64,000 nucleotides of DNA from assembly GCA_044867445.1 (NCBI GenBank), contig JBIOUY010000370.1, positions 9,037-73,036 on the forward strand. Direction: 5' to 3'. This stretch comes from Gemmatimonadales bacterium. Lineage in GTDB: Bacteria; Gemmatimonadota; Gemmatimonadetes; Gemmatimonadales; GWC2-71-9. Made by a program: the position numbers and the translations under genes. Position 1 is the first letter of the stretch, and the number at the start of each line of letters is the position of its first letter. The notes below the pieces were generated by a model. It worked only from the letters and a program-made list of their open reading frames with translations, searched no databases and was not told the origin of the DNA. Below, one piece after another: positions 28,636 through 60,497 of this stretch.

Positions 28636-28661
28636 AATGCGGCGGGCCTGCGGGAGGTTCC
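28636..28661 (-). promoter_or_regulatory. Putative ECF sigma promoter 1
   Basis: GGAACC-N14-CGCATT. Confidence 0.7.
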
Positions 28662-28666
28662 GGAGA

Positions 28667-28715
28667 AGCTGACAGCCAACAGGTAACGGCTGACAACTAA
28701 CAGCTGACGGCTATC
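28667..28715. repeat. Degenerate heptamer array (RGCTGAC) x7
   Basis: agctgac agccaac aggtaac ggctgac aactaac agctgac ggctatc. Confidence 0.75.
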
Positions 28716-29330
28716 AGGCTGCTGAAATAGCGTGGATCTGTGACTCCGTCTGCTCGCGATGCGATCCCATTTGCCCCGCCGGCCGTGGCGTGGTGGCCCC
28801 GGCTCTGGCGGCACTCCGCTCGGTGCTCCAGGGGGGCCTCAGGGGCTCACTCCCGCACCGATCAGGGTCCGCAGCCGCACCAGATTGTACGCGGCCATCG
28901 TGAAGGTGAAGATCCAGTCGACCAGCTCTCGACCTCGATGCCGCAGCTTCCGCAGGAGCCCGATGGTCTTGCTCCAGCCGAAGCTCTCCTCCACCCGTTT
29001 CCGGCGCTGTTGGCTGGTGGCATAGCCGGCGTGACGAGTCGTGCGTCCATCCAAGACACTGGTCGGGCCCGGTGCGATATGCGGGGTCCAGCCCAGGGTG
29101 CGCAGCCCGGTGATGAGACTCTGCTGATCGTAGCCCTTATCGGCCCCCAGCGTGCGCCGGCCGACGCGCGCCGGCTGGGTCGCACAGAGCTCGATCGCCT
29201 GGTCCACCTCCGCCGTCCCGCTCGGCGCACTCACCGTGGTCGCCACCACCAGGCCATGCCGGTTGTCCAACAGCACACTCGCCTGATAGCTCAGCTTGGC
29301 TTCCTTGCTCGGCCCCTTGTTCGCCAGCCC
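28715..29330 (-). mobile_element. Truncated IS5-family element (transposase C-terminal half plus one terminal repeat)
   Basis: KEAKLSY..DNRHGLVV..LGADKGYD..DGRTTRHAGY..RKRVEESFGW..AAYNLVRL; end CAGGCTGCTGAAA at 28715; N-terminal half missing. Confidence 0.85.
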
Positions 29331-29421
29331 GGCAAGAGCGCGCTCAGCTCCTCGCGTCCAACTGCGAGACACTACGTGAGGCGCAGCAAACGGCTGCGGC
29401 GTGCTCGTCACTGCGCACCCC

Positions 29422-29453
29422 TTGACCCTATACCCTGGTACAGGGTCTATGTT
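29422..29453 (+). promoter_or_regulatory. MerR-type operator/promoter
   Basis: TTGACC-N20-TATGTT with dyad GACCCTATACC-CT-GGTACAGGGTC. Confidence 0.88.
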
Positions 29454-29479
29454 GCATCAGCCGCAAGGAGGGCTGAAGG

Positions 29480-30227: not shown

Positions 30228-30236
30228 GAGAAGACG

Positions 30237-30617: not shown

Positions 30618-30622
30618 ACGCA

Positions 30623-32583: not shown

Positions 32584-32605
32584 CCGGGGACGAAGGAGAA
32601 CACGG

Positions 32606-39872: not shown

Positions 39873-39898
39873 GGAACCATCTGCGCGCTCCTCGCATT
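39873..39898 (+). promoter_or_regulatory. Putative ECF sigma promoter 2
   Basis: GGAACC-N14-CGCATT. Confidence 0.7.
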
Positions 39899-39946: not shown

Positions 39947-40441
39947 ATGAAGATCACCGGTTCTCTCCTGGTTGCGCTGGCGCTGATCGCGTCGGCAGGC
40001 CAGGCTCATGCACAGGCCACCCAAGGGAAGAAGACCCTGACCCTCGAGGGCGCCAAGGTGGTCGCCGCGGCGGCCGCGGCTGAAGCGAAGAAGGGCAATG
40101 AAGGCGGTTCCATCGCAATCGTGGACGACGGCGGCAACCTCATGTATCTCGAGCGCATCCAGCCCACCTTTCCCATGGGTGCCACGATCTCCACCGAAAA
40201 GGCGCGGACTGCCGCGCTGTTCCAGAAGCCCACCAAGATTCTCGAGGATGCCATCGTCGGGGGCCGCACCCCGCTTCTGAGCGTGTGGTCGGCACCGCTC
40301 AACGGCGGCGAGCCGATCGTCGCCGACGGTCAGGTGGTCGGCGCCATTGGAGTGAGCGGCGCATCCAGCGCAGCCCGGGACGCCGCCATTGCAATCGCCG
40401 GCGCAACCGCACTTAACGGCAAGACCAGCGCGGCCAAGTGA
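39947..40441 (+). CDS. GlcG/HbpS family heme-binding protein, secreted
   Basis: Signal peptide, IAIVDDGG, KARTA, GGEPI..GAIGVSG. Confidence 0.9.
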   Translation: MKITGSLLVALALIASAGQAHAQATQGKKTLTLEGAKVVAAAAAAEAKKGNEGGSIAIVDDGGNLMYLERIQPTFPMGATISTEKARTAALFQKPTKILEDAIVGGRTPLLSVWSAPLNGGEPIVADGQVVGAIGVSGASSAARDAAIAIAGATALNGKTSAAK

Positions 40442-40452
40442 GGAAACCGATT

Positions 40453-40920
40453 ATGCGACCGATGATTCTGCTTTTCGCGCTCGTGCTGCTCCTGGGCGCT
40501 GCCCTCGGACCCCAGGCAAACGACGGTGCCGTGACCTACATCCCGGCAGAGCAGGTGAAGGCGAACTTCGCCAAAGGCGTGCCGATGCTGGAGGTCGGCG
40601 ACTACAAGATCCACGCGAGCCGGCGCGAGGGGCCGGGCATGGCGGAGATCCATACCCGGGACACCGATATCGCCTACGTCCTCCAGGGTTCGGCGACACT
40701 GGTGACCGGCGGTACCGCGCTGGCGGTGAAGTCGATCGGGCCCGAAGAGCTCCGCGGAAGCGCCATCCGGGGCGGTGAGACCCGGCAGCTTTCCCCCGGC
40801 GACGTCGTGGTGATTCCCAATGGCACGCCGCACTGGTTCAAGGAGGTCAAGGCTCCGTTTCTGTACTACGTGGTCAAGGTCCGTCAGGCCGAGCGCCAGA
40901 CCGCCGCGGGGGCGATGTGA
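40453..40920 (+). CDS. Secreted cupin domain protein
   Basis: AEIH..D..YVLQGSATLVTGG, GDVVVIPNGTPHWF. Confidence 0.85.
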   Translation: MRPMILLFALVLLLGAALGPQANDGAVTYIPAEQVKANFAKGVPMLEVGDYKIHASRREGPGMAEIHTRDTDIAYVLQGSATLVTGGTALAVKSIGPEELRGSAIRGGETRQLSPGDVVVIPNGTPHWFKEVKAPFLYYVVKVRQAERQTAAGAM

Positions 40921-42563
40921 TGCCGGGCCGATTCCCTACCCTGCCGTGGGCCGCACTGGCCAGCGTTCTCATCCCAGTGGTGGGATGGGCGCAGGCCACT
41001 GTGGACTTACCGCTCGTCCTCCCCGCGGCGGTGGTAGATCTCCGCACCAACGAAGGCGCCGCGTTGGTCAAGGCCCAGTGGCGTTACAGCGATGTCAAGC
41101 TGGTCGAAGTCGATCACCATGCTCCCGGTTCGGATCTCCGACCGTCGGGCACTCCCACCCGTACCCATGATATCTCGCCTCACGCCGGGGCGGCCGACTT
41201 CGATGATTCGGCTTGGGAGGGGATCGAGCCCGCGGGCCTGGAGGCCCGCCGCTCCAATGGCAGGCTTGCCTTCAACTGGTACCGGACCAGAATCACCCTC
41301 CCCGAACGCGTGGCCCGGTTCGACGTGACCGGGTCGACCGTGGTGTTCGAGCTGGTCATCGACGACTACGCCGAGGTCTGGGTGGATGGCAAGCTGCCGC
41401 TGGTGCTCGGTCAGACAGGAGGCCAACTGATCAAGGGATTCAACGCACCTAACCGGGTGGTGCTCACCCGGCACGCCCGCCCAGGTCAGCAAATCCAACT
41501 CGCGATCTTCGGGGTCAACGGTCCGGTGTCCAATCCACCGGGCAACTTCATTTGGATCCGTTCCGCGACACTGGACTTCTATCGGCCGGACCAGGTGGGC
41601 GGAGCAGCCACGGTTGCTGCCAAGATCGTTCGGCTCGACCCCGCGGTCGATCGCATCGTTGCGCCGGGCGCAAAGCTGGAGAAGCTGGCCGGAGGGTTCC
41701 AGTTCATCGAGGGGCCGGTGTGGCATCCCGATGGCTACCTACTCTTCAGCGACCCCAATGCCAACACCATCTACCGCTGGACACCCGACGGATCGGTCTC
41801 CGTCTTCCGCAGCAAGAGCGGGTACAGCGGGTTTGATATTGGCCAGTACCATCAGCCTGGCTCCAACGGGCTGACCTTGGACCCGAACGGGCTGCTCACG
41901 ATCAACGAACATGGTAATCGCCGGGTGACACGGCTGGAACGCACCGGCGCGATCACCGTCCTGGCCGACCGCTACGACGGCAAGCGACTCAACAGTCCCA
42001 ACGACCTGGTCTATCGGTCGGACGGCACGCTGTACTTCACCGACCCACCGTTCGGTCTGCCGAAGGCATTCGATGACCCGCGAAAGGAGCTCCCCTTCAG
42101 CGGAGTCTATAAGGTGAAGGACGGCCAGGTGTCGCTGCTGACCAGGGAGCTGAGCGGCCCCAACGGGATCGCCTTCTCTCCCGACGAGCAATACCTCTAC
42201 GTCGATAACTGGGATCTCAAACGCAAGGTGCTGATGCGCTACGAAGTGAACTCGGACGGGACGATTGCCAACGGGAAGGTGCTCTACGACTTCACCAAAG
42301 AGCCCGAGATGGTTGCGCTGGACGGCATCAAGGTGGATCAGCAGGGCAACGTCTACGTCTCGGCGCCGGGCGGGATCTGGATTCTCTCGCCCTCAGGCAA
42401 GGCCCTGGGCCGGATCGCACCACCGGAGCACGACGCCAATTTTGCTTTCGGCGATGCCGATGGGAAGTCACTCTATCTGACGGCCAGCACCGGACTGTAT
42501 CGGATTCGGGTGAACGTCCCAGGGATTCGGCCGTTGCCCACGGTGCAAGCCGCGGCCCGCTGA
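40917..42563 (+). CDS. SMP-30/gluconolactonase with N-terminal sugar-binding-like domain
   Basis: EGPVW, LFSD, GSNGL, LNSPND, YFTDP, PNGIAFSPD, DGIKVD; N-terminal WYRT..DDYAEVWVDG. Confidence 0.9.
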   Translation: MMPGRFPTLPWAALASVLIPVVGWAQATVDLPLVLPAAVVDLRTNEGAALVKAQWRYSDVKLVEVDHHAPGSDLRPSGTPTRTHDISPHAGAADFDDSAWEGIEPAGLEARRSNGRLAFNWYRTRITLPERVARFDVTGSTVVFELVIDDYAEVWVDGKLPLVLGQTGGQLIKGFNAPNRVVLTRHARPGQQIQLAIFGVNGPVSNPPGNFIWIRSATLDFYRPDQVGGAATVAAKIVRLDPAVDRIVAPGAKLEKLAGGFQFIEGPVWHPDGYLLFSDPNANTIYRWTPDGSVSVFRSKSGYSGFDIGQYHQPGSNGLTLDPNGLLTINEHGNRRVTRLERTGAITVLADRYDGKRLNSPNDLVYRSDGTLYFTDPPFGLPKAFDDPRKELPFSGVYKVKDGQVSLLTRELSGPNGIAFSPDEQYLYVDNWDLKRKVLMRYEVNSDGTIANGKVLYDFTKEPEMVALDGIKVDQQGNVYVSAPGGIWILSPSGKALGRIAPPEHDANFAFGDADGKSLYLTASTGLYRIRVNVPGIRPLPTVQAAAR

Positions 42564-42587
42564 CCCGGCTCCAGATCGATCCCGTTC

Positions 42588-42683
42588 ACCACAGAGGCAC
42601 AGGTCACAGAGCTCACAGAGGAAACAACAGAAAACCAGTTGCAGTTCTCTCTGTGCCCTCCGTGTCCTCTGTGCCTCTGTGGT
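42588..42683. repeat. 9-mer-type palindromic element with perfect 15-bp terminal inverted repeats
   Basis: ACCACAGAGGCACAG...CTGTGCCTCTGTGGT with internal cacagag/ctctgtg units. Confidence 0.85.
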
Positions 42684-42725
42684 AAGAAGCGACAGGAACT
42701 TAGCAGCTTACGGAGCGTCGACGAC

Positions 42726-45502: not shown

Positions 45503-45528
45503 GGAACCTTTTGAGGATTCGTCGCATT
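45503..45528 (+). promoter_or_regulatory. Putative ECF sigma promoter 3
   Basis: GGAACC-N14-CGCATT. Confidence 0.7.
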
Positions 45529-46222: not shown

Positions 46223-46396
46223 ATGGCTCCCAGCCCGATGCGCTGCCCCAAGTGCGGCGCCACCATGAATCAACATGCCGAGAAAGTGGTGTACGGCAGC
46301 CAGGGGGCCAAGACCGATCCCGAGCTCGGTGGCGTGATCGAGGAGATGCACGCCTGCCCCCGATGCGGGTACGTCGCCTCGCGCCCGGCGACGTGA
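46223..46396 (+). CDS. 57-aa zinc-ribbon protein
   Basis: Missing from the ORF track: MAPSPMRCPKCGATMNQHAEK..EEMHACPRCGYVASRPAT; GAGGT RBS. Confidence 0.75.
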   Translation: MAPSPMRCPKCGATMNQHAEKVVYGSQGAKTDPELGGVIEEMHACPRCGYVASRPAT

Positions 46397-46640: not shown

Positions 46641-47255
46641 ATGTCCGGCTCTCGAGCCGCCCACCCCACACCGGCGCCCGCCCCGGCAAGCTTCGAGTCG
46701 CTCTTCGGGGCGCTGGCCAACTCAGCCTTTGGGGTGGCGGTGCGCCTGACGCGAAACAAGGCGGACGCGGAGGATCTGGTCCAGGAGGCCGCGCTCCTCG
46801 CGTTCCGAGCCTTTGAATCTTTCGAGCAGGGGTCCAACTTTAGGGCCTGGTTCTTCAAGATCCTGACCAACTGCTATTTCTCCAAGCGGAGGCGGGAGAA
46901 GAGCCGGCCGGTCACCTCTGACCTGGACGACACGCCCGATCTGTACTTGTACGCCCGGTCAGGTGAAGCAGGCTTTCCTACCACCGGGCCCGACCCGGCC
47001 GGCCAACTCCTGGACAAACTGGGAACGGAGCGAGTGGTGGCTGCGATTGATCGGCTGCCGGAGGAGTATCGAGTCGTTTCCACGCTGTATTTCATGGAGG
47101 ACCTCTCCTACGAGGAGATCGCCCGGATGCTGGACTGCCCCATCGGCACGGTGCGGTCCCGGCTCCATCGAGGACGCAAGATGCTACAGAAGGCCCTGTG
47201 GCAGATCGCCACTGAAGACGGTATCATCGCCCCAGCATTCGGGGGATTGCAATGA
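46641..47255 (+). CDS. ECF sigma factor (SigR/SigH-like)
   Basis: DAEDLVQE, GSNFRAW, LSYEEIA..CPIGTVRSRLHRGRKML; start uncertain. Confidence 0.93.
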   Translation: MSGSRAAHPTPAPAPASFESLFGALANSAFGVAVRLTRNKADAEDLVQEAALLAFRAFESFEQGSNFRAWFFKILTNCYFSKRRREKSRPVTSDLDDTPDLYLYARSGEAGFPTTGPDPAGQLLDKLGTERVVAAIDRLPEEYRVVSTLYFMEDLSYEEIARMLDCPIGTVRSRLHRGRKMLQKALWQIATEDGIIAPAFGGLQ

Positions 47256-47524
47256 GCGATTCACTGGACCGGATGACCTGCGAGGCGGCCTTCCGCCGAC
47301 TGGACGATTTTCTCGACCGTCAATTGAGTGCCGAGGAGATGCGGCTGGTGGAGGAACACTTGCACATCTGCGAAGCCTGCACCCGGGAGTTCACCTTCGA
47401 AGCCAGCGTACTCGCGGGAGTGAAGCGCAAGCTCAGGGCGATCGAGCTCCCCGCCGATCTCCTTGCCCGCATTTCGGGCCAACTCGGTCGCGCGAAAGAG
47501 GACTCTGCGGAGGGTCAGAGCTGA
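47252..47524 (+). CDS. Zinc-binding anti-sigma factor (zf-HC2, RsrA-like)
   Basis: TCE..LDDFLD..HLHICEAC; ATGA overlap with the sigma gene. Confidence 0.9.
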   Translation: MSDSLDRMTCEAAFRRLDDFLDRQLSAEEMRLVEEHLHICEACTREFTFEASVLAGVKRKLRAIELPADLLARISGQLGRAKEDSAEGQS

Positions 47525-48354
47525 CTGACGCCGGTTCCTGTCTCGTGAACCACGTTCGCCACAGCCCGCTCGATTCCAAAATCCTTCAGTACCTCGTCCG
47601 AGGTCTGCCAGAGACTGTGCCCGACCGTCTCCAGGTCCACCGATGAGGGGTGCAGGTGCTCCAGCAGGTCCAGTCCGAGCGCTTCATGCAGGTCCCGGCA
47701 CCGCGCAAAGACCGTGCGTGACAGGTGCGCCCGGGTCAGGTCCGCGCCCCTCAGGGAAGCCCCATTCAGCACGGCGAAGGTGAGATCGGAATGGCGGAGC
47801 GCCGCGCCTCGCAGGTCCACGGCGGTGAACAGCGCGTCCAGCAACATGCAATAGCCGAGATTCGCGTCGCGCAGGTTGGAGTAGCTGACATTGGCTTCGG
47901 TGAGATTGGCGCCGCTCAGGTCGGCTCCAGTCAGGTTTACGTGGGTGAGGTCAATACGCCGCATCTCGGCGTCTCTGAAGGTCGATCCCGAGAGATTGGA
48001 ATTCTTGAGCGTGACGCGGGTCAGGTCAGCGCCCTGAAAGTTGGTCCGTGCCAGCCCGCTCACCTCCAGTGTTACGGCCTGAAGCCGAGCGTCGCCCAAT
48101 CTTGCGCTGATGAAGCTGGCGCCCGCGAGATTCGCAAGCGTAAGGTCCGCACCTTCCAGGTTGGCCCCCTCCAGAACCGCTCCCCGAAGATCCGACTGAC
48201 ACAGGTCGGCCCATCGCAAGTCGGCGCCCCGCAGATCGGCATCGCGCAGGTCTGCTCCGAGCAACATTGCATGAGTGAGGGATGCTCCGGTCAGCACATC
48301 GGCCTCTATCTCCCGAAGTGCCTCGCCAGTCTGCTTGTGCCTGATCGTGATCAT
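47515..48354 (-). CDS. Pentapeptide repeat protein
   Basis: Many A(D/N)LxG repeats; RBS GAGGAGG. Confidence 0.9.
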   Translation of the reverse strand: MITIRHKQTGEALREIEADVLTGASLTHAMLLGADLRDADLRGADLRWADLCQSDLRGAVLEGANLEGADLTLANLAGASFISARLGDARLQAVTLEVSGLARTNFQGADLTRVTLKNSNLSGSTFRDAEMRRIDLTHVNLTGADLSGANLTEANVSYSNLRDANLGYCMLLDALFTAVDLRGAALRHSDLTFAVLNGASLRGADLTRAHLSRTVFARCRDLHEALGLDLLEHLHPSSVDLETVGHSLWQTSDEVLKDFGIERAVANVVHETGTGVSQL

Positions 48355-49336: not shown

Positions 49337-50516
<1,180 letters not shown>

Positions 50517-50530
<14 letters not shown>

Positions 50531-51749
50531 GAACCTCTCCTTGGGTCTCAACCAGTTGAATGACGTGGCCGTCGGGATCGCGGACCAGGATGCCCCGCTG
50601 AAAACCGAGGGTCGTATCGGGCAGCGTTACCGGCGTGGACGAGAGCAGGCGGAATTGTCCCCGCTTAACCACCTGCGCCGCCGCGGCGACGTCGGGGACC
50701 AGTACCGTGGTCTGCCAGTGGACCAGATCGTTGGGCCGTTCGTCTGCCGGGAATGGCCGACCATTCCGCGGGTTCAGGTACTCGAGAAACTCGACGCCGG
50801 GGCCCGACGGCGCTCGGAGACCTGTGATCTGGAGCCGCGCCCCAGGCACACTGTTCAGGTTTTCCTGCTCCGTCCCGAAATTCATGCTCTCGCCCGCGAC
50901 TCGAAAGCCGAGCGCGTCGCGATAGAACGCCAGGCTTGCCTGCGTGTCCCGAACCACAATGGCCGTGTGGTCGATTCCCAGAAAGAGCCGGTCGCTGGCC
51001 GAGTGCCACTTAGGGTCGCCCTTGTCGGGCGGGAACTGCAGCACCTCAAGCGGATGGCCGTCGGGATCGCGGAAGTAGAAGGCGCGGATGCCCGCCGCAT
51101 TCGGGATAGTCTTTGGGAGCAGCTGTGGCCCGGCCGACACCTCGTGCACCTTGAACCGTTGCAAACGGGCGTAGGCGCTGTCCATGTCGCTCACGATCAC
51201 GGCCACATGCTGAAACCAGCGATCGTTGCTCTTGGCATCGGCCGGCGCGGGCCGACCTCGAGGGATCAGATACTGAGAAAGCTGGAGATACTCATCGCCC
51301 AGGCGCAGACGAACCACGCGCACGTGCGCTCCGGAGATGCCGCCGAGCTGCTCGTAGGCTGGGCCGGCGATCTCGTCGTCGGTGAGCTTCTCGAAATCCA
51401 GCACCTTGGTGTAGAACGCCACCGAACGGTTCATATCAGAAACGGTGAGCCCCACCATGGCTACCGCCTGCGCCCGGCTCGCTTGGTTGGTCGGCTCAGT
51501 CGCCTGGGTGGCCGCGTACCTGGGAACGGCACCCTTTCCTTGCCAGGGGTGGGGCGACTGGGCGGGGAGCTGAGGCGCGATGAGGAAACTTGCGAGCAGC
51601 ACAAGCACCGTCAGCCCGAGGAGGCACCGCGCTCCCGTCATCCCGAGCGGAGCGAGGGACCTTCTTAGCCGATCTCCGGAGCTGGCCGGCAAGGTCCCTC
51701 GGTCGCGTTGCTCCCTCGGGATGACGGCACAGCGCATCAAGGCGCTCAT
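50517..51749 (-). CDS. Secreted two-domain VOC/glyoxalase family protein
   Basis: [41 protein letters not shown]. Confidence 0.88.
51637..51725. repeat. REP-like palindrome inside the 5' end of the VOC gene
   Basis: GTCATCCCGAGCGGAGCGAGGGACCT...AGGTCCCTCG..CTCGGGATGAC. Confidence 0.9.
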
Positions 51750-53368
51750 GCCGCCACCCCAGTGGCCTCGGCTGACACCCTAGCCGCGTTTCGTCCGGCA
51801 CCGAGTCGCTCCAGCAGATGATCCCCCACCCGGAGCGCGTTTGCCATGATGGTGAGCGCCGGGTTCACCGCGCCGCTCGAGGGGAAGAAGCTGCCATCCA
51901 CGACGTAAAGATTGTCCACCTCGTGGGCCCGGCAGTTCGGATCGAGCGCCGACGTGTTGGGGTCACGGCCGAATCGGACGGTGCCGTTCTGGTGCGCCAC
52001 GCCGGCCAGCGGAATGCGTTGGCCCAGGAAGAGATTCCGGGCGAAGAGTCCTTGATGACAGCTTTTGCCGTGGATCGAGCAGGTGGTCTGCTGCTGCATC
52101 AGGGCTTCCACCTTCTTGATCAGCCGCTTATGCCCCTCGCCATTGTTCGGAGTGTAGGCGAGAACGATCTTGCCGTCGCGATCGAGGGTGACCCGATTGT
52201 TCGGATCCGGGAGGTCCTCGGAAGTAAGCCAGAAGTCGATCGAGTGCTTCCCCATGAGCTCCAAGGTCCAGCCTGGCGCGATGGCGGGAGCCCCCGCCGA
52301 GAGCGTCGCCCCGTCGAGCTTGCCGACGAAGGAGATGTGCCCCATGGGGAATTCCCACTCCGGTGAGCCGAAATAGAAGTCATTTACCGCGAGCGTCTTC
52401 TGAAAGATTGTGGGGTTGGGACACTTGGAGAGCGCCATCAGCACCGAGTTGACGTGCCCCATGTAATACCGGCCCACCACATCGGAGCCGTTGGCTAGCC
52501 CGCGCGGGTGTTGATCGCTCACCGACCGGAGCAAGAGCGCGGCGGAGTTGATGGCCCCGGCCGAGACCACTACAATGTCGGCCGAATAGATCTCCCGCGC
52601 CCCTTGGCGCTCCACCAACACCTTGGTGACCTCGCGGCCCGACGCGTTGGTTTCCAGGCGGGAAACGTAGGCCCCAGTGAGCAAGATAGCGTTGGGGTAC
52701 TGGAGCGCGGGCTCGACGCAGATCACCTGGGCATCGGACTTGGCCTGGACCAGACAGGGATGGCCGTCGCAGGTCCCGCAGCGAATGCAGCGACTCCGCC
52801 GCCGATCCGATTCGTCGAGCATGATGCCAAGCGGGACATGGAACGGACGCAAACCCAGGGCGGCGAAGTCATCGCTCAGCTGCTGCATCCTCGGCTCGTG
52901 ACTCACGGCCGGGAACTTGTAGGGTGCGCTCGCGGGCGGCTCGGTCGGATCGACTCCGCGCTCCCCGTGCACTTGGTAGAGGTGCTCCGCCGCGGAGTAG
53001 TAGGGCTCCATCTCGTCGTAACTGATCGGCCAGGCGGGCGAGATTCCCTCATGGTGCTTGAGCTCTCCGAAGTCCGCCTTGCGTAGCCGGAATAGAGCAG
53101 CGCCGTAGAACTTGGTATTGCCTCCTACCCAATAGTTGGTGTGAGGATGAAGATCCTTGCCATCCTTGTCGCGCCAGTGCTCAGTCGTCTGGTACTTCCC
53201 CTCCACGTTGACCGCGCGGGTATTCCAGTTATCCGTTTCCCGGGGAACAAAATCCCCGCGCTCCAGGAGGAGGATTCGCTTTCCCGACGGCGCCAGGCGA
53301 TGGAAGAGCGTGCCTCCCCCAGCGCCGGAGCCGATGATGATGATGTCGTAGTGAGTTGAGGGGGGCAT
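51746..53368 (-). CDS. GMC family oxidoreductase
   Basis: GSGAGG, VGGNTKFYG, CIRCGTCDGHPC, AHQNGT, VNPALT. Confidence 0.93.
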   Translation of the reverse strand: MPPSTHYDIIIIGSGAGGGTLFHRLAPSGKRILLLERGDFVPRETDNWNTRAVNVEGKYQTTEHWRDKDGKDLHPHTNYWVGGNTKFYGAALFRLRKADFGELKHHEGISPAWPISYDEMEPYYSAAEHLYQVHGERGVDPTEPPASAPYKFPAVSHEPRMQQLSDDFAALGLRPFHVPLGIMLDESDRRRSRCIRCGTCDGHPCLVQAKSDAQVICVEPALQYPNAILLTGAYVSRLETNASGREVTKVLVERQGAREIYSADIVVVSAGAINSAALLLRSVSDQHPRGLANGSDVVGRYYMGHVNSVLMALSKCPNPTIFQKTLAVNDFYFGSPEWEFPMGHISFVGKLDGATLSAGAPAIAPGWTLELMGKHSIDFWLTSEDLPDPNNRVTLDRDGKIVLAYTPNNGEGHKRLIKKVEALMQQQTTCSIHGKSCHQGLFARNLFLGQRIPLAGVAHQNGTVRFGRDPNTSALDPNCRAHEVDNLYVVDGSFFPSSGAVNPALTIMANALRVGDHLLERLGAGRNAARVSAEATGVAA

Positions 53369-53383
53369 ACGACCACCGCCTGA

Positions 53384-53499
53384 TCAGTGAGAAGTAAGAA
53401 GTGAGAAGTGAGCAGTTAACAGTGAGCGGTGAGCAGTGAGCCGTAGGAGGCGGTAGGGGCTCTCTTACTTCTCACTGCTCACTTCTTACTGCTCACCGC
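53384..53499. repeat. Inverted heptamer arrays
   Basis: gaagtga/gcagtga units, then ttacttc tcactgc tcacttc ttactgc tcaccgc. Confidence 0.9.
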
Positions 53500-53500
53500 T

Positions 53501-54238
53501 CTACTTGCTGCTCATCGCCTCACCCGCCGGCACGATGCTCACCCGCAGCACATCGGCCGTCCGGGGATAGCTGAAGTGATCGCTGACGTGAGCCACCGCG
53601 TTATGCTCGGCCACGCCGGCATCCGGCGTCTTCTGGCGGGGGCCCTGATTGGGACCCAAGCCGGGCTCTTCGTTCACCTCAGTGCCCGCGTCCCACAGCG
53701 AAAGCTGCAGCGTCATGTCTCCCGACTTGGGCTTGCCGGCGGCGTCGAACAGCGCGATCGGCCGATCATTGGAGTAGAACAGGTCGTTGGACTGGCCGAA
53801 CATCCACGCCACCGATAGGGTCTGCCCCGGTGAGGCTGAAACCTCGAAGCTGTAGCCTTGGCCCGGAGTGAGTGGCCCCTGAGCCGTTGCACCGATCGGG
53901 CTCGCATCCGCTCCCACCGAGACAATTCCCTTGGCCCCGGTCAGCGACTTGGCGAGAGGCTCAGGATTACCGGTCTCGGCGAGGGCCTCGAGCCCCTTCC
54001 CCGCGTCCGGCTGGCCGCCGGTGAAGATGGGATTTGCGGCGCCGCTGTGAATGACCCAGAGAACTGGCGCCGATACGAAGGGCGCGGTCTTGGCGTTGGA
54101 CAGCTGCAACACCTCACTCTTCGAGATGTTGTCGACCTTGACGGTGAACTTGGTCGGCTCCGCCGAGCTCTGCGCCGCGGCTCCGTGGGCCGCGGCCAGG
54201 ACGGCCACCGACAGCGAGATTGCGCGGACGAGCGACAT
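53501..54238 (-). CDS. Secreted spondin-N domain protein
   Basis: GLEALAETG, MFGQSNDLF, WDAGTEVNEEPG. Confidence 0.88.
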   Translation of the reverse strand: MSLVRAISLSVAVLAAAHGAAAQSSAEPTKFTVKVDNISKSEVLQLSNAKTAPFVSAPVLWVIHSGAANPIFTGGQPDAGKGLEALAETGNPEPLAKSLTGAKGIVSVGADASPIGATAQGPLTPGQGYSFEVSASPGQTLSVAWMFGQSNDLFYSNDRPIALFDAAGKPKSGDMTLQLSLWDAGTEVNEEPGLGPNQGPRQKTPDAGVAEHNAVAHVSDHFSYPRTADVLRVSIVPAGEAMSSK

Positions 54239-54251
54239 GGGAGTCTCCAGG

Positions 54252-54731
54252 TCAGGAAGCAGGGGTCAGGGGCGCGGTTGCGAAGTTGACGCCGAACCGG
54301 CGGCACCAGATCGTCACGGCCCGATACTTGGAAAGATCGAGATCTTCCGGCACGTCATAGTTCTGGTCGCCCTGGTTACCCTTGAGCTTGCCGACCTCAA
54401 TGAAGCCGGCCTTGGTCACAGTTTCGTTGTCTTTGGCATCGGAGCTGGCGACGAGGTATACCCGAACATCCGGTCCGTTGGAGGTGGCGAATTCCGTCAA
54501 CCGCAGAACCCGCCGGCCATCGCCGAGGTCCTGGATGGTCGCCGTCCCATGGGTCTCGTGGGCTACCGAGTGGAACTGACCGGCCGCAAGGGCCCGGGCC
54601 ACGGAGGCGCCGGCGCTCGCGACCTGCTCCTCATTGACCTTCTGGTTTACAAACAGCAACTCCGGCCGGAACAGATACCAGCCAATCCCTCCGAGCACGA
54701 CCAACCCGACGATCCAGGCACGGCGTTTCAT
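54252..54731 (-). CDS. DM13 domain protein
   Basis: NGPDVRVYL, LKGNQGDQNY, IWCRRFGVNF. Confidence 0.9.
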   Translation of the reverse strand: MKRRAWIVGLVVLGGIGWYLFRPELLFVNQKVNEEQVASAGASVARALAAGQFHSVAHETHGTATIQDLGDGRRVLRLTEFATSNGPDVRVYLVASSDAKDNETVTKAGFIEVGKLKGNQGDQNYDVPEDLDLSKYRAVTIWCRRFGVNFATAPLTPAS

Positions 54732-54791: not shown

Positions 54792-55691
54792 CTATAATGC
54801 CGGCGGGCGAGAAAAGGTTTCCTGCGCTGTCCTGGCCTGGCGAGCCTCGCAGAAGATGCAGCGCTGGTCGTTCGGGTGATGCAGTTTGGCGCAGAAGATG
54901 GCTTCTCGCCCGCGTGTCCGGAGATAGAGTTCGGCCGCTGCCAGCATGCCCAGTGGAGGGGCCGCAAAGTAGAGCCAGAGGGCTGTCCAGTTGCGGGCAA
55001 ACAAGGCAGAACTCAAGGTCCGTGCCGGGTTCATGCTCATCCCCGAGAGGGGCCCCTCGAAAGTGATATACAGGGCGACGAGCGCTCCGGCGCAGAGGCC
55101 GGTGTACCGAGCGAAGCGCCGATGGTTGGAGACCCTCAGAATGACCGCCATCAGCAGAAATGAGATGGCCAACTCCGCCAGGAACGCGACGGCGACGCCA
55201 TCGGGTCCCGGCACGGTAACCGCGAAATTGGTGGCCCGGTCCGCCAGCCGAGCTCCGAGAAGCTCCCATGCCACGAATACCCCCACCGCGCCACCAAGAA
55301 ACTGGGCCACGACGTATCCCACGGCGTCACGCCGGGGCACCTTCCCCAGCCGGAGAAAGGTGAGTGTGGTTGCCGGGTTGAAATGGGCGCCGGACCGCTT
55401 GCCCCAAGGGGAGTAGATCAGCAGGATCGCGGTAGCTCCCATGGCCAGCCCGGTCAGCAACCGGCGGAGGTCGCCGTTGGCGACGCCCTGGCGAACCGGC
55501 GAGGAGGGATATTCCAGCAGCACCGTGAAGGCGCACGCGGAGATCATGAAGATCCCGAGCAGCGCCGCCTCGATCAGGTATTCGGCGCGGAACCTCGGAG
55601 CCTGGACCACAGGCTTTGGCTGGGTGGCGAGCGTAGCCTCGGTGCGTCCGCCGTCACTCAGTTCGGCACCTGCCTGTGTCACCGCGTCCAT
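54792..55691 (-). CDS. MIP/aquaporin family channel with Cys/His-rich tail
   Basis: SGAHFNPA and SMNPAR; tail FCAKLHH..RCIFC. Confidence 0.92.
   Translation of the reverse strand: MDAVTQAGAELSDGGRTEATLATQPKPVVQAPRFRAEYLIEAALLGIFMISACAFTVLLEYPSSPVRQGVANGDLRRLLTGLAMGATAILLIYSPWGKRSGAHFNPATTLTFLRLGKVPRRDAVGYVVAQFLGGAVGVFVAWELLGARLADRATNFAVTVPGPDGVAVAFLAELAISFLLMAVILRVSNHRRFARYTGLCAGALVALYITFEGPLSGMSMNPARTLSSALFARNWTALWLYFAAPPLGMLAAAELYLRTRGREAIFCAKLHHPNDQRCIFCEARQARTAQETFSRPPAL
54796..54821 (-). promoter_or_regulatory. Putative ECF sigma promoter 4
   Basis: GAAACC-N14-GGCATT upstream of the DM13 gene. Confidence 0.55.
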
Positions 55692-57691
55692 GGTGCAACG
55701 CCGGTGAGCGTCCGACCGGGCGCCGCCGAGCGGCTTTCCGCCAGCACCTGCAGATTCAGCCGAAGGGCCTCGCCCACCGACCATGCCTGAAACGGACAGC
55801 CCCGTGGAGTGTACGGTGACTCGGCGTCGGCGATCTCGGAGATGTGCCCCAGGCCGGCCTGGGACAGGTGCTCCATCAGGGGCTCCAGGAATCGCTGCCT
55901 GGCCTCTCCTCGCGCATCGACCGTGTCCCCGCGGACCCGCACCCAGGCGTCCACGAAGGCGCCCAACAACCAGGGCCAGACGGTCCCCTGATGGTAGGCG
56001 GCGTCGCGGGAGCGCATATCGCCCTGGTAAACCGGCTGGTACCCCGGCGAGCCGGGAGCCAGCGTCCGCAACCCGAGTGGGGTCCAGAGCACCTGCTCGA
56101 CCCGCTCCACGATCCGCCGCGCTCGGGCCCCCTCAATGAGTGGGTAGGGTAGTCCGCCTACAGCAAAGATCTGATTGGGGCGGAAAGAGTCATCCACCTG
56201 GCCCGACTGGTGGTCCACATCCACAACGTCGTAGAGACATCCGCCCGCTTCATTCCAGAACCGCCGAGCGAACGCGTCCATTCCTCGCTCGTATACCGCC
56301 CGATAGGCCGGGGTAAACAGCTCCGCAATTCTCAGCGCGTTGAGCCACAGCGCCTGGATCTCGACCGGCTTGCCCACTCGAGGCGTGACCACCCAGTCGC
56401 CCACTTTGGCATCCATCCACGTGAGCTGAACGCCCGGCTCTCCTCCCGCGAGCAAGCCGTCCTCAGCGACTCGGATCCGATAGCGGCCGCCTCGCACGTG
56501 GCCGGCGAGGATCGCCTCAACCGCGCTGCCCAGCTCGCGCTGATCGCGCTGAGCGGCAACCTTGAAGCCGCGGGCGTTCATGGCCGCCAGGTAGTCGTGC
56601 ACCGCGATGATATACCAGAGCGATGCGTCCACCGTGTTGTACTCCGGGGCATCCCCCTGATCCACGAAGCGGTTGGGTAGCATCCCCTCGGAGACCAGCC
56701 CAGCCCACTCGAGCAGAATGGAACGGGCCTCACCCAGCCGTCCCGTGGCGAGACAGAGACCCCGAAGTGAGATGAAGGTGTCCCGACCCCAATCGGTGAA
56801 CCAGGGATAACCGGCCACGATGGTCTTGCCGTCGCCGCGGCGCACGAGATACCCATCGGCCGCGCGCTCCAGCCGAGAGGCGAACCGGGCTCTGCGGGTC
56901 CGCTCCCCGTGGCGCAGCTTCGTGAAGAGGGAGCCGGCGAGGCGCTCGTCACGCATTGTATCACCTGCCGAGAGCAGCAGCACTGCGTCACCCTCCGCCA
57001 GATTCCAGGAGAAGACGCCAGGCGCTGCCAGGTCCTCCACCGCATCGAGCCCGCGAGCCCGCTCTTCGGTGTAGAGGAACCCACGGTACCACTGCTGATC
57101 GGGAGCGTAGCTGCCGTTGCTGAGAGCGGTCACCGGGGGCACGCCCTCGTATGACCGCCACACAACCTTCTGACCGGCAAGCTCAGCGTGGAAGCGAAAG
57201 TCGGGATTCTCGTGATGGGTCGAGTGTGAGTCCCGGCCAGAGAGAAAGGGACGAACCGAGAGGGTGAGCGGGAGGCGCTTGCCGACGATTTTCCAGCGCA
57301 ACGCGACCATGGGCCTGCCGCTGGGTACGAACAGCTCCTGCTCGATCTTGTTGCCGCTCGACAGTTGGTAGACCCAGGTTGGCCAGGGGTCGTCACTAAA
57401 CGATTCGAGGGTAGCACCCTGCTCCGGAGCCACAATTCCGGGATCGTAGCGCTGCCGGGTGAGGTATTCAGGAGCAGAGCTGCTCTCGTGCGGGCCGCCC
57501 GAGGCAGTCGCCACCCAGGCATCCAGCCCATTGACCAGGACCATGCGGCCCGTCGGTGGCGTGGTGGCGGCAAGCAGCAGCGCGTGATAGCGGCGAGTGC
57601 GGAGCCCAGACGTGGTGCCCGAGGCGAATCCTCCCAGGCCATCGGTCTCCAGCCACTCGGTCTGGTCGTCGAGCGAGATAAGCTCGGTCAT
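55679..57691 (-). CDS. Amylo-alpha-1,6-glucosidase (glycogen debranching enzyme-like)
   Basis: EWLETDGLGGFASGT, AGYPWFTDWGRD, LTWMD, YHQGTVWPW, GCPFQAWS. Confidence 0.93.
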   Translation of the reverse strand: MTELISLDDQTEWLETDGLGGFASGTTSGLRTRRYHALLLAATTPPTGRMVLVNGLDAWVATASGGPHESSSAPEYLTRQRYDPGIVAPEQGATLESFSDDPWPTWVYQLSSGNKIEQELFVPSGRPMVALRWKIVGKRLPLTLSVRPFLSGRDSHSTHHENPDFRFHAELAGQKVVWRSYEGVPPVTALSNGSYAPDQQWYRGFLYTEERARGLDAVEDLAAPGVFSWNLAEGDAVLLLSAGDTMRDERLAGSLFTKLRHGERTRRARFASRLERAADGYLVRRGDGKTIVAGYPWFTDWGRDTFISLRGLCLATGRLGEARSILLEWAGLVSEGMLPNRFVDQGDAPEYNTVDASLWYIIAVHDYLAAMNARGFKVAAQRDQRELGSAVEAILAGHVRGGRYRIRVAEDGLLAGGEPGVQLTWMDAKVGDWVVTPRVGKPVEIQALWLNALRIAELFTPAYRAVYERGMDAFARRFWNEAGGCLYDVVDVDHQSGQVDDSFRPNQIFAVGGLPYPLIEGARARRIVERVEQVLWTPLGLRTLAPGSPGYQPVYQGDMRSRDAAYHQGTVWPWLLGAFVDAWVRVRGDTVDARGEARQRFLEPLMEHLSQAGLGHISEIADAESPYTPRGCPFQAWSVGEALRLNLQVLAESRSAAPGRTLTGVAPWTR

Positions 57692-60408
57692 CGGCGGCTC
57701 CCCGCGAGGGCGGCGGGCTTCCGTGCCCCAGCATGAGCTGGGGCTTCCCGTCGGCGCGCAAGGTCTTCGATGCAGCGCACCGCAAGCGCCGTCCACCCGG
57801 TCTGGTGACTGGCGCCTACCCCGCGTCCGTTGTCGCCGTGAAAGTATTCGTAGAAGAGCACCAGATTTTTCCAGTGTGGATCGCTGGCGTAGCGGCTATC
57901 AGCCCCGTGGACTGGGCGACGGCCGCTCTCGTCCTGGAGAAAGATCCGCGCGAGCCGCGCCTGCAGCTCCATCGCGGTCTCCTGGAGGTTCAGCATCCGT
58001 CCTGATCCCATGGGGCACTCCACTCTGAGCTCGTCGCCGTAGAAGTGGTAGTAGCGCTCCAACGCCTCGACCAGCAGGAAATTGATCGGGAACCAGATTG
58101 GGCCGCGCCAGTTCGAGTTGCCGCCGAAGAGCCCAGTATTGCCCTCGGCCGGGACGTAGTCCACCCCGTACGGCATGCCCATCACATCGAACTGGTAGGG
58201 CCGATCCTTATGAATCCGGCTCACCGAGCGAATCCCGTGGGGAGAGAGGAATTCGGTCTCATCCAGCAGATAGCGCAGCACTCGCTCCAGCCGATCCCGT
58301 GACGGGATCGCGAGCAGGCGGCGCACCCGCCCGTCCTTCTCCTGCGGGCGCATGCACGCGATGTTTCGGGTGACGTCCTGCCGGTTCTCCAGGAACCAGT
58401 TCATCCGGCGCTTGAACCCCTCGAGATGGCCGAACTTCTCCTCCTCCAGCACCTCGACTGCGATCAGGGGAAGGGCACCCACCAAGGAACGGATTCTGAG
58501 TGGTATGTGGTGGCCGTCGACGTGAAGTTGGTCGTAGTAGAACCCATCCTCTTCACTCCATAGGCCGGATCCGCCCAGGTGGTTCATCGCATCCGCGATG
58601 CAGATGAAATGCTCGAAGAACTTGGAGGCCACGTCCTCATACGCCGGGTCCTCACTGGCAAGCTCCAGTGCCATGGAGAGCATGGTATTGCAGTAGAATG
58701 CCATCCACGCGGTGCCGTCGGCTTGTTCCAGGTGTCCGCCGGTGGGCAGCGGCCGCGAGCGATCGAAGACCCCGATGTTGTCCAGCCCCAGAAAACCGCC
58801 GGCGAACAGGTTGCGCCCCTCGGGATCCTTCCGGTTGACCCACCAGGTGAAGTTGAGCAGCAGCTTCTGGAAGACGCGCTCCAGGAAAAACCGGTCTCGC
58901 TGCCCCCTGGGCCCCGTCATCTTGTACACCCGCCAGCAGGCCCACGCGTGCACCGGTGGATTCACGTCGCCAAACGCGAATTCGTAGGCCGGGATCTGGC
59001 CATTGGGATGCATGTACCACTCGCGCAGGAACAGGACCAGTTGCTCCTTGGCGAACTCGGGGTCGATCCGGGCGAAGGGGATCATGTGGAACGCGAGGTC
59101 CCAGGCGGCATACCAGGGATACTCCCACTTGTCCGGCATCGAGATGACGTCGCGGTTGTAGATGTGCGGCCATTCGACGTTGCGGCCCGACATCCGACTT
59201 GCCGGTGGGGCCGGTTGAGAAGGATCGCCCTCCAGCCAGTGCTGGGTCACGAAATGAAAGAACTGCTTGCTCCAGAGCAGCCCGGCGTACCCCTGCCGGA
59301 TCACCCGTCGCTCGTCCTCCGTCGCTGCTGCTGGAATCCGCTCGGCGTAGAACTCATCGGCCTCGGCGATCCGATCACGGAAGACGCGATCGAACCCGGC
59401 GCCGAACGGTATGCCCCGGCTCTGCTCTGCGTGGCGCAGACGCAGGCGAACGGTCCGCTGGCCCCCCGATGGTATGGACAGGATGTAGTGGAAGGCGGCC
59501 TTGCTGCCCTCCCTCGCAGGGTTCACCGCGCCGAGCTCTCCGTGTACGACGACGCGGTGAAACGCGTCCTTCACGTAGGGCTGCGGGTTGGGCGCGCCGT
59601 ACAGCCGGCTGAGATTGGTTTCGTTCTCGGTGAACCGGAGTTCGGGATCCGGGGCGCCATCGACGGATTCCGCGTCGAGCTGATACCGACCCAGGCTCTC
59701 CTGCTCAGCGACAAGACTTCTCAGTCCGGACGCTCGGATCACCGGCTTGGCCCAGTAGCCTTCTCCCTGCCGCCCCCAGCTCCAGGTGTTGCGAAACCAG
59801 AGCGTGGGAAGCAGGTGGAGGGTCGCTGTTTCCGGGCCGCGATTCGCTACCGTGATTCGGATCAGCACATCGTCCGTGTCGGCCTTGGCGTACTCGGCGA
59901 AGACGTCGAAGTATCGGTTGTCGTCGAATATGCTGCTGTCGGTCAACTCGAATTCGGGATCCAGTTTCCCCCGTTCCCGGTTGACTCGGACGAGCTGGTC
60001 GTATGGGTATTCCGTCTGAGGATACTTGTAGAGTGCCTTGAGGTAGGAATGGGTGGGCGTGGAGTCGAGGTAGTAGTACAGCTCCTTCACGTCCTCACCG
60101 TGGTTGCCTTCGGGACCGGTGAGCCCGAACAGGCGCTCCTTGAGTATCGGATCTCGCCCGTTCCACAGCGCCAGCGCGAAGCACATCCGCCCTTGGCGGT
60201 CGGTAATGCCGAGCAGTCCGTCCTCGCCCCAGCGGTACGCCCGACTCCTCGCGTGATCATGAGGGAAGTAGTTCCAGCAGTCTCCGTACTCCGAGTAGTC
60301 CTCTCGGACCGTTCCCCACTGGCGTTCGGCCAGGTAGGGTCCCCACCGCTTCCAGTTGCGCTCGCGCCGCGTGTCCTGCGCCAGGCGCTCCGCTTCGGCT
60401 CCAGCCAC
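57688..60408 (-). CDS. MGH1-like / GH63 glucosidase
   Basis: WGPYLAERQWGTVREDYS, MPDKWEYPWYAAWD, NSNWRGPIW, GASHQTGWT. Confidence 0.92.
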   Translation of the reverse strand: MAGAEAERLAQDTRRERNWKRWGPYLAERQWGTVREDYSEYGDCWNYFPHDHARSRAYRWGEDGLLGITDRQGRMCFALALWNGRDPILKERLFGLTGPEGNHGEDVKELYYYLDSTPTHSYLKALYKYPQTEYPYDQLVRVNRERGKLDPEFELTDSSIFDDNRYFDVFAEYAKADTDDVLIRITVANRGPETATLHLLPTLWFRNTWSWGRQGEGYWAKPVIRASGLRSLVAEQESLGRYQLDAESVDGAPDPELRFTENETNLSRLYGAPNPQPYVKDAFHRVVVHGELGAVNPAREGSKAAFHYILSIPSGGQRTVRLRLRHAEQSRGIPFGAGFDRVFRDRIAEADEFYAERIPAAATEDERRVIRQGYAGLLWSKQFFHFVTQHWLEGDPSQPAPPASRMSGRNVEWPHIYNRDVISMPDKWEYPWYAAWDLAFHMIPFARIDPEFAKEQLVLFLREWYMHPNGQIPAYEFAFGDVNPPVHAWACWRVYKMTGPRGQRDRFFLERVFQKLLLNFTWWVNRKDPEGRNLFAGGFLGLDNIGVFDRSRPLPTGGHLEQADGTAWMAFYCNTMLSMALELASEDPAYEDVASKFFEHFICIADAMNHLGGSGLWSEEDGFYYDQLHVDGHHIPLRIRSLVGALPLIAVEVLEEEKFGHLEGFKRRMNWFLENRQDVTRNIACMRPQEKDGRVRRLLAIPSRDRLERVLRYLLDETEFLSPHGIRSVSRIHKDRPYQFDVMGMPYGVDYVPAEGNTGLFGGNSNWRGPIWFPINFLLVEALERYYHFYGDELRVECPMGSGRMLNLQETAMELQARLARIFLQDESGRRPVHGADSRYASDPHWKNLVLFYEYFHGDNGRGVGASHQTGWTALAVRCIEDLARRREAPAHAGARKPAALAGSRR

Positions 60409-60471
60409 GGTAAATCCTCCCGATGGCGCCGTACCGCCGTCTGTAGACGAGTTTTGCGATTACCTGCCTAG

Positions 60472-60497
60472 AATGACAACCAGGGGGGAATGGTTCC
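60472..60497 (-). promoter_or_regulatory. Putative ECF sigma promoter 5
   Basis: GGAACC-N14-GTCATT upstream of the glucosidase operon. Confidence 0.65.

Follow-up and report, generated by a model that had tools for sequence, protein, structure and literature searches.

Six copies of a two-block motif, gGGAACY-N14-NNC(A/G)TT (alternatively written GGAAC-N17-C(A/G)TT), precede genes in a 64,000-nucleotide stretch of the genome of a Gemmatimonadales bacterium (GenBank assembly GCA_044867445.1, contig JBIOUY010000370.1, positions 9,037 to 73,036 of the forward strand). We refer to this whole stretch as the window and to its source genome as G000; other G numbers denote genomes of relatives. Quite probably, the six sites are promoters that are read by a SigH/SigR-like extracytoplasmic function (ECF) sigma factor, most likely P0001, which is encoded in the window; it would be held by a zinc anti-sigma factor (ZAS), released by a signal and drive six transcription units. 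Comparison of sequences establishes the motif with its geometry, shows it conserved at orthologous genes and finds it together with a sigma/ZAS pair; by these features the system is a variant of the SigH/SigR-ZAS type, with a distinct conserved regulon of about 20 predicted target genes.

The motif and its six sites

The six sites are listed below; the distances given are those between the start codon and the 3' end of the site.

28636..28661, minus strand: predicted promoter site 1, GGAACC-N14-CGCATT, 59 nt before the start codon of the ABM-domain gene
39873..39898, plus strand: predicted promoter site 2, GGAACC-N14-CGCATT, 48 nt before the start codon of the HbpS-like gene
45503..45528, plus strand: predicted promoter site 3, GGAACC-N14-CGCATT, 34 nt before the FMN reductase ATG at 45563
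54796..54821, minus strand: predicted promoter site 4, GAAACC-N14-GGCATT, within the 3' end of the aquaporin gene, 64 nt before the DM13 gene
60472..60497, minus strand: predicted promoter site 5, GGAACC-N14-GTCATT, 63 nt before the GH63-like gene
60817..60842, minus strand: predicted promoter site 6 (new), GGAACC-N14-GGCGTT, within the 3' end of a DUF4153 gene, 66 nt before the orphan ZAS gene

The original prediction for this window had described five copies of the motif. All five exist, as the pattern GRAACC-N14-SNCATT has exactly five matches in the window, but the total is six, the site at 60817-60842 (minus strand) having been missed. In dinucleotide shuffles 0.17 matches are expected (standard deviation 0.40, maximum 2) and none of 100 shuffles reached five, although this test is partly circular because the pattern was tailored to the five sites. 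The predicted orientation and distance of 35-65 bp to a start codon agree with our measurements for these five (59, 48, 34, 64 and 63 nt). Over all six sites the distances, which depend on our own calls of gene starts, are 34-66 nt, and a purine-rich, Shine-Dalgarno-like stretch is found at each start. Site 4 overlaps the last codons of the aquaporin gene and would therefore be an internal promoter. The possible weaker copy that had been suggested at 42695 does not fit the motif: it reads GGAACT-N13-CGTC, and we rejected it for its N13 spacing, for CGTC in the place of CRTT and for its end only 5 nt before ATG 42726. The gene of relative G120 that is orthologous to the one at 42726 does carry a good site (L119:745).

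The G000 draft comprises 4,513,069 bp in 373 contigs (95.4% complete), with 4,404 genes by our own codon-usage calls. On both strands of this draft, G[GA]AACC-N14-NNCATT has 14 matches, five of which lie in the window, that is, in 1.4% of the genome. The wider pattern G[GA]AAC[CT]-N14-NNC[AG]TT has 35 matches, with six in the window and 29 in the 4.45 Mb outside it. When 16 spacing and -10 variants of GGAACY-Nx-NNCxTx were scanned genome-wide, enrichment was found only for N14/CATT and N14/CGTT: matches that were intergenic, co-oriented and at most 250 nt from a start numbered 5/11 and 4/11, respectively, and 0 or 1 in each of the other 14 variants. The motif scan over the genome and its relatives that had been proposed, done here by regular expression, thus favours the prediction, since only N14 with CATT or CGTT is gene-proximal and the motif recurs at orthologous genes.

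Outside the window, candidate sites precede genes for an RclA-like flavoprotein disulfide reductase, a VOC protein, an HtrA-type protease and others, which may belong to other regulons because the genome encodes about 50 ECF sigma factors. The reductase site (G000:C161:29889, L032) reads GGAACC-N14-CTCGTT and lies 44 nt before the gene; the encoded protein comes nearest to the models PRK06370 and RclA (reactive-chlorine resistance) without reaching the cut-off of either, and is a possible regulon member.

The genes behind the sites and the genes of the sigma and anti-sigma factors are the following, with supporting matches in brackets.

27842..28576, minus strand: ABM-domain (antibiotic biosynthesis monooxygenase-like) protein, 244 aa, hydrophobic N-terminus (PF03992, E 3.2e-18)
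39947..43787, plus strand: four-gene operon behind site 2, gene order kept in relatives (PF03928, PF07883, PF08450)
39947-40441, plus strand: HbpS-like/GlcG protein, first in the site 2 operon
40462-40920, plus strand: cupin, site 2 operon
40917-42563, plus strand: SMP-30/gluconolactonase-like (SGL) protein, site 2 operon
ATG 42726 or GTG 42765 to 43787, plus strand: second SGL protein, site 2 operon
45563..46129, plus strand: NADPH-dependent FMN reductase family protein (PF03358, E 3.2e-25)
46223..46396, plus strand: zinc-ribbon protein, 57 aa, two CxxC pairs (weak zinc-ribbon Pfam matches only)
46641..47255, plus strand: ECF sigma factor P0001, 204 aa, SigH-like (Pfam r2 and r4_2)
47252..47524, plus strand: ZAS anti-sigma factor P0002, 90 aa, its start overlapping the sigma stop codon (PF13490)
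47515..48354, minus strand: pentapeptide-repeat protein, on the strand opposite to sigma and ZAS (PF00805, E 7.9e-48)
49337..54731, minus strand: five-gene run behind site 4 (Pfam and NCBIfam)
54252-54731, minus strand: DM13 protein, site 4 run
53501-54238, minus strand: spondin-domain protein, site 4 run
51746-53368, minus strand: GMC oxidoreductase, site 4 run
50517-51641, minus strand: two-domain VOC/glyoxalase-fold protein, site 4 run
49337-50449, minus strand: glucose-dehydrogenase-like MDR protein, site 4 run
54792..60408, minus strand: three-gene operon behind site 5 (Pfam and NCBIfam)
57688-60408, minus strand: GH63/MGH1-like glycoside hydrolase, 906 aa (PF22422, PF03200)
55679-57691, minus strand: archaeal-type glycogen debranching enzyme, GDE (PF06202, PF12439; TIGR01561 at 372 bits, over its cut-off)
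54792-55691, minus strand: MIP channel, aquaporin (PF00230)
60514..60750, minus strand: orphan ZAS anti-sigma factor P0003 (zf-HC2), 78 aa (PF13490, E 8.4e-11)

A more specific name for the GH63-like enzyme was rejected: its sole match in the Protein Data Bank (PDB), 4j5t, is a marginal one (E 3.5e-4), and with the glucosylglycerate hydrolase model it reaches 20.9 bits where 550 are required.

Sites at orthologous loci in relatives

The genomes searched numbered 121 at the level of the family, 201 at that of the phylum and 61 at that of the genus. Sites were sought in G000 and in the loci fetched from relatives, with one regular expression derived from the window. Of the unpublished genomes, G068 enters only the tally of the sigma-homolog search, and the loci of G156 (L129) and G273 (L165) support no claim. 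Homologs of P0001 with E values of 1e-45 or better were found in 23 of 96 same-family genomes and in 3 of 38 genomes of a second family in the order; the 66 genomes sampled from ten further families yielded none.

The sigma loci compared were 45, from published genomes other than G000, with a P0001 homolog of at least 45% identity and at least 400 nt of upstream sequence. A co-oriented exact site is present within 400 nt of the operon start in 19 of the 45, and within 1500 nt in three more (22/45), where about 0.07 would be expected by chance within 400 nt given the hit rate in G000. The carriers are 22 of the 38 homologs that have an adjacent ZAS gene and none of the seven that do not. Weaker sigma homologs had a match at one of ten loci, and an outgroup sigma clade, which keeps the residue pair I-N of SigH (see below), has no conserved upstream site; its single match, in L027, is not kept in the close relative L029.

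Within the genus, the orthologs of P0001 (74-88% identity) likewise follow the site: G143 (88% identity) and G268 (81%) have the order site, FMN reductase, zinc ribbon, sigma, ZAS, tightly packed in G268, and in G201 the site is directly upstream of the sigma gene. The arrangement site-sigma-ZAS, pentapeptide gene, site-GH63-GDE was found in G033, G040, G075 and G018, and in G101 with no pentapeptide gene detected, while G037 and G104 have the order site-ZAS-sigma-GH63-GDE. Additional ZAS genes follow a site in G120 (L007:3262) and G002 (L055:4147). G000 looks like a rearranged version of this common module, because its GH63 operon keeps a ZAS gene (P0003) with its own site and has no sigma gene beside it.

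The predicted target genes show a similar pattern. Orthologs of the GH63-like gene have a co-oriented site in 12 of 26 evaluable loci, either before the gene itself or before a ZAS-sigma-GH63-GDE operon. These 12 loci come from 12 genomes, all with a sigma homolog at E 6.5e-43 or better; in the 11 genomes whose GH63 copies are all site-less, the best sigma match is no better than E 7.2e-39, or there is none at 1e-30, a threshold that was picked after the data had been seen. For DM13, a site is present in all five ortholog loci (at least 59% identity) and in none of seven distant homologs, and the order DM13-spondin-GMC is kept in G040 and G120. The HbpS-like gene has a site at 5/5 same-genus orthologous loci and at 5/8 loci of other genera (at least 50% identity), against 0/19 distant homologs. 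In four of the five carriers from other genera this site is some 560-650 nt upstream and precedes a longer reading frame; two of the three site-less loci are preceded by other same-strand island genes and the third is cut by a contig end. The ABM gene has a co-oriented site in four of five same-genus orthologs (at least 59% identity).

Altogether, the relatives' loci contain 54 distinct sites in 389 kb, against about 2.5 expected from the G000 background (29 in 4.45 Mb). Between orthologous sites the spacers are unrelated, whereas G(-1), GGAACY and CRTT are kept. This suggests selection on the -35/-10 pair rather than general sequence conservation. That orthologs in other genera carry co-oriented GGAACY-N14-NNCRTT with unrelated spacers also speaks for the earlier proposal of a local regulon around an ECF sigma factor, with the sites as promoters of one ECF family.

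Some neighbouring features recur at these loci. The pentapeptide-repeat gene is the opposite-strand neighbour of the sigma/ZAS pair across many genera (L003-L008, L116, L126-L138), frequently separating the ZAS gene from the GH63 promoter. Decay of the module was also seen: G120:C60:212-742 is a sigma copy with an in-frame TGA beside a site-bearing lactonase gene, and at G116:C3:387995-390647 the GH63 gene is broken into several frames.

The proposed sigma factor, its putative anti-sigma factors and rival explanations

P0001 is an ECF (group 4) sigma factor that has only regions 2 and 4 (Sigma70_r2 at residues 22-87, Sigma70_r4_2 at 130-182) and passes the cut-off of the sigma70-ECF model TIGR02937 (97.4 against 42.9 bits). 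Its best PDB match is Mycobacterium tuberculosis SigH (5zx2_F, E 2.4e-33), and its match to PhyR_sigma2 is weak (19 bits, cut-off 27). Both ZAS proteins have the arrangement Cys-x25-His-x3-Cys-x2-Cys, with ligand residues C10, H36, C40 and C43 in P0002 and C3, H29, C33 and C36 in P0003, column for column with RsrA (5frf), and neither has a membrane or sensor domain. P0003 is 47% identical to P0002 (tblastn). A complex model of P0001 with P0003 reached an ipSAE of 0.81, where the best of three controls reached 0.00; 51 of 78 solved complexes attain the mark, as do 2 of 108 mismatched pairs, and because sigma/anti-sigma complexes have already been solved, this pass shows likeness only, and not which family member binds. 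The three runs share at least 96% of contacts, with a partner pLDDT of at least 86.

Sigma factors of the SigR/SigH type recognise GGAAY-N18-GTT and are held by thiol-sensing zinc anti-sigma factors. The original prediction had read the -10 element of the window as a variant, and it does differ from the invariant GTT; however, it is not a fixed CATT but C(A/G)TT, the two forms occurring side by side within genomes and loci. At the base before TT (-11), 35 of 60 sites have A and the other 25 have G; five of the six window sites have A, and C or T at -11 shows no gene-proximal enrichment. We considered CATT and CGTT as markers of two paralogous sigma factors and rejected this, as both forms occur within single loci or genomes (G000, G040, G101). 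In M. tuberculosis SigH, any change of G-11 T-10 T-9 is described to abolish promoter activity, and the -11 pair is read by I91 and N92 (PMC6411747). Aligned to SigH, P0001 conserves the residues F72, N77, W81, I85 and N88 of the T-10/T-9 pocket, has S in the place of T76, and has F and S in the place of I91 and N92. Over the 32-member clade the latter two positions are Y/F/I and S/G/A/T, whereas the outgroup clade keeps I-N. Since the SigH readers of -11 are replaced in this way, A or G at -11 fits, and the replacement is a plausible structural reason for the tolerance.

Site 3 leads the run that contains the sigma gene, and autoregulation, as had been proposed, is plausible: the run from this site through FMN reductase, zinc ribbon and sigma to ZAS is also found in the same-genus genomes G143 and G268, and no terminator-like site was found in 45400-47700. 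The zinc-ribbon gene is conserved between the FMN reductase and sigma genes in G143, G268 and G221. RNA folds of both intergenic gaps between FMN reductase and sigma are no stabler than shuffles (z +0.61 and +1.92). Two sigma-70-like matches in 45400-47700, with 0.2 expected, were judged uninformative.

Several observations weigh against the reading that P0001 is a SigH/SigR-like factor that drives all six units from these sites. The nearest site upstream of the P0001 gene is 1.1 kb away, across intergenic gaps of 93 and 244 nt. The exact site is absent at 23 of 45 sigma-homolog loci and at 14 of 26 GH63 loci, counts that are upper bounds because the regular expression misses diverged sites. 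Related genomes, moreover, are not independent samples. The best NCBIfam model for P0001, TIGR02947 (SigH_actino), is missed (146.4 bits, cut-off 251.55), as is TIGR03988 (RsrA), the best model for both anti-sigma factors (P0002 40.2 and P0003 50.5 bits, cut-off 62.5). The assignment to the SigR/SigH type, which was part of the original prediction, is the best available one, with SigH as the top PDB match and SigH_actino and RsrA as the top models, both under their cut-offs. Conserved Cys and His residues are no proof of redox sensing. None of eight thioredoxin-system genes in the G000 draft (four trxB-like and four trx genes; assembly 95.4% complete) has an exact GGAAC-N17-CRTT within 400 nt upstream; a relaxed search (one core mismatch, spacing 16-18) gave five matches at four of these genes, all with one mismatch and a spacing of 16 or 18. 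The hallmark output of SigR and SigH is thus unseen, which weakens a simple thiol-stress reading. Finally, G000 has about 50 ECF-type sigma genes (52 region-4 matches), its members of the P0001 clade are P0001 and a 56%-identical paralog on contig C35, and the GH63-linked sigma genes do not group with P0001, in a part of the tree where the backbone is unresolved. P0001 itself groups with G033:C233 and the C35 paralog (support 95/85).

These last points would suit a situation in which the sites are real ECF promoters read by another sigma factor, either the C35 paralog or another GGAAC/CGTT-type ECF among the roughly 50, with P0001 merely a target. The -35 recognition helix of the C35 paralog is nearly identical to that of P0001, P0001 falls outside the sub-branch of GH63-linked sigma genes, and GGAAC/CGTT-type promoters are common to several ECF groups, with overlap of SigH and SigE in Corynebacterium glutamicum according to the promoter data of PMC10012870. 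We nevertheless consider a different reader unlikely. The C35 paralog has no adjacent ZAS gene and no GGAAC site upstream, in keeping with ZAS-less homologs in general (0/7, against 22/38 of those paired with a ZAS), whereas the same-genus orthologs of P0001 lie behind the same site and the site co-occurs with members of the clade across genomes. The C35 paralog (G000:C35:3651-4837, L042) has a STAS-domain gene upstream and a small DUF4031-like gene downstream, and may be under partner-switching control. It is far less probable still that the motif is no promoter at all, but a chance recurrence, the site of a conventional transcription factor or a repeat element. The first pattern was indeed fitted to five sites, and the genome is rich in intergenic repeat arrays; but the motif consists of two short blocks at a fixed 17-nt distance on one strand, always co-oriented with a gene and 34-66 nt from its start, with unrelated spacers between orthologous sites. 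Its geometry is identical to that of experimentally mapped ECF promoters, as far as these are given in PMC10012870 and PMC6411747, and it co-occurs with a sigma/anti-sigma pair.

A non-redox role of the regulon has a more substantial, though still minor, chance of being right. The sites would then serve a general, osmotic or desiccation stress response or a carbon-storage regulon, with a structural zinc in the ZAS (as in RsiW or the ChrR type) and with turnover of storage glucan or compatible solutes as the output. The conserved core target, which consists of the GH63-like hydrolase, the glycogen debranching enzyme and the aquaporin, agrees with this, as do the siteless trx and trxB genes, the RsrA scores of both ZAS proteins, which lie below the cut-off, and the somewhat better match of P0002 to RsiW (E 6.7e-5) than to RsrA (E 2.8e-4) among solved chains. 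On the other hand, both ZAS proteins keep the four RsrA-type ligands at identical spacing and have no membrane or sensor domain, much of the target set consists of flavin or redox proteins (FMN reductase, GMC oxidoreductase, DM13, HbpS-like), and one candidate target outside the window is the RclA-like reductase.

From these comparisons we infer promoter activity, the identity of the reading sigma factor, the signal and the physiological output. In the resting state, P0001 would be held by the small cytoplasmic ZAS P0002 from its own operon and by the orphan paralog P0003. A signal would free it; judging from RsrA and RshA, this could be oxidation of thiols or an electrophile attacking the C-H-C-C zinc site. 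The free sigma factor would then direct RNA polymerase to gGGAACY-N14-NNC(A/G)TT, with transcription expected to start about 9 nt after the last T. Unit 1 would yield the ABM protein, unit 2 the HbpS-like protein, the cupin and two lactonase-like proteins, and unit 3 the FMN reductase, zinc ribbon, sigma factor and ZAS, which would amount to positive autoregulation with built-in negative feedback. Unit 4 would run from DM13 and spondin through the GMC oxidoreductase and VOC protein to the glucose-dehydrogenase-like enzyme, unit 5 would encode the GH63-like hydrolase, glycogen debranching enzyme and aquaporin, and unit 6 the second ZAS, as extra negative feedback. The conserved targets comprise the glucan-degrading pair and a channel, enzymes that oxidise sugars or resemble lactonases, flavin reductases and several redox-domain proteins that are probably exported. 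The output may thus be a ZAS-gated stress response in which stored glucan is mobilised, sugar is oxidised for reducing power and redox proteins are exported.

A bolder and rather doubtful version is that the system is a redox switch that turns stored alpha-glucan into reducing power instead of repairing thiols, with a sigma factor that has lost its contacts to the -11 G:C pair and accepts A or G, and with two ZAS proteins that set the threshold and the shut-off. In such a switch, the GH63-like hydrolase and the debranching enzyme would free glucose, the glucose-dehydrogenase-like, GMC and lactonase-like enzymes would oxidise it, and the FMN reductase together with the exported HbpS, DM13 and spondin redox proteins would use the reductant, while one of the two ZAS proteins would be both sigma-dependent and unlinked.

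Neighbouring genes and known systems

Sites 1 and 2 are separated by a mercury-resistance island (28839-39800) that lies exactly between them. It contains a DDE transposase fragment (28839-29372), merR, merT, merP, merA, a second flavoprotein disulfide reductase, an AraC regulator, three merB copies, one of them truncated, and a TauE exporter. In the same-genus genomes G271, G143 and G203, the ABM and HbpS operons adjoin and diverge, and two sites stand back to back between them at a distance of 24-37 nt; in G301 the same pair of sites, 13 nt apart, lies between ABM and a lactonase-like gene. As the relatives' operons adjoin in this way, the island appears to have been inserted into a bidirectional promoter region without damage to either promoter.

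Other features of the window adjoin the sites as well. Arrays of heptamer-type repeats lie in the gaps beside them (46130-46215, 42585-42685, 39833-39865 and 28662-28700); the array between the FMN reductase and zinc-ribbon genes consists of GGTGAGA/GGTGACA units, and 46120-46230 folds no better than shuffles (z 0.61). Divergent from site 3 is a gene for a Rieske-ferredoxin domain fused to a ferredoxin-NAD(+) reductase (43882-45423, minus strand), which has no site on its own strand; such a fusion is also divergent from the site-bearing sigma operon in G207 (L146). The second sigma gene of the window (18367-19146, minus strand) encodes regions 2, 3 and 4, is thus of the group-3 type and not an ECF, and seems to have no connection with the motif.

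Gemmatimonadota are bacteria that abound in soil, and to our knowledge their gene regulation is almost without experimental study. Full-text searches, with hits judged by title and abstract, returned no paper on a Gemmatimonadetes ECF sigma/anti-sigma system or on a Gemmatimonas sigma factor in oxidative stress, and a full-text search returned none that joins an ECF sigma factor with GH63. The main text of the ECF re-classification (PMC7826278) does not mention Gemmatimonadetes, although its supplementary group tables may already list the clade. The conserved set of sigma factor, anti-sigma factors and promoters described here, with about 20 predicted targets, is concrete enough for simple tests, whether with reporters or by in vitro transcription. 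That a ZAS-controlled SigH-like sigma factor is linked, by gene neighbourhood and by regulation, with a GH63-like hydrolase and a glycogen debranching enzyme, and not with thioredoxins, points to a connection between stress sensing and the use of storage carbohydrate. The tolerance of A at -11 together with the replaced reader residues provides a testable hypothesis on structure and specificity that may be useful for orthogonal ECF switches; if true, it would represent a natural, engineerable change of ECF -10 specificity.

Three known systems invite comparison. The general stress response of alphaproteobacteria, EcfG-NepR-PhyR, uses promoters of the form GGAAC-N16-17-CGTT, and resembles the system described here in this consensus and in a wide stress regulon, many of whose proteins have no assigned function; unlike it, the present system has a ZAS as its anti-sigma factor and neither NepR nor PhyR. 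The SigH/SigE promoters of C. glutamicum are GGAACN-N16-CGTT, and the CGTT form of our motif has the identical -35/spacer/-10 layout. All 16 promoters in the table of PMC10012870 end in GTT (14 CGTT, two AGTT) and none in ATT, and the regulon given there differs, with chaperones, membrane proteins and sigB.

The closest likeness is to SigH-RshA of M. tuberculosis and SigR-RsrA of Streptomyces coelicolor (ECF12). These share with our system a two-domain ECF sigma factor and a small soluble ZAS with Cys-x25-His-x3-Cys-x2-Cys, an operon of sigma and anti-sigma genes with the motif upstream, and the geometry GGAAY-N18-(G)TT, in which the -35 element, the spacing and the TT all match. The differences begin with the host, which belongs to the Gemmatimonadales and not to the Actinobacteria, and with the scores of sigma and ZAS below the curated cut-offs. 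The SigH consensus is GGAACA with G-11 T-10 T-9, the G-11 being invariant in the account of PMC6411747, whereas 35 of our 60 sites have A at this position. The present system is also predicted, from site 6, to have a second, separately transcribed ZAS paralog. Finally, while trx and trxB carry no exact site, the regulon described here centres on the GH63-GDE pair and on exported redox proteins.

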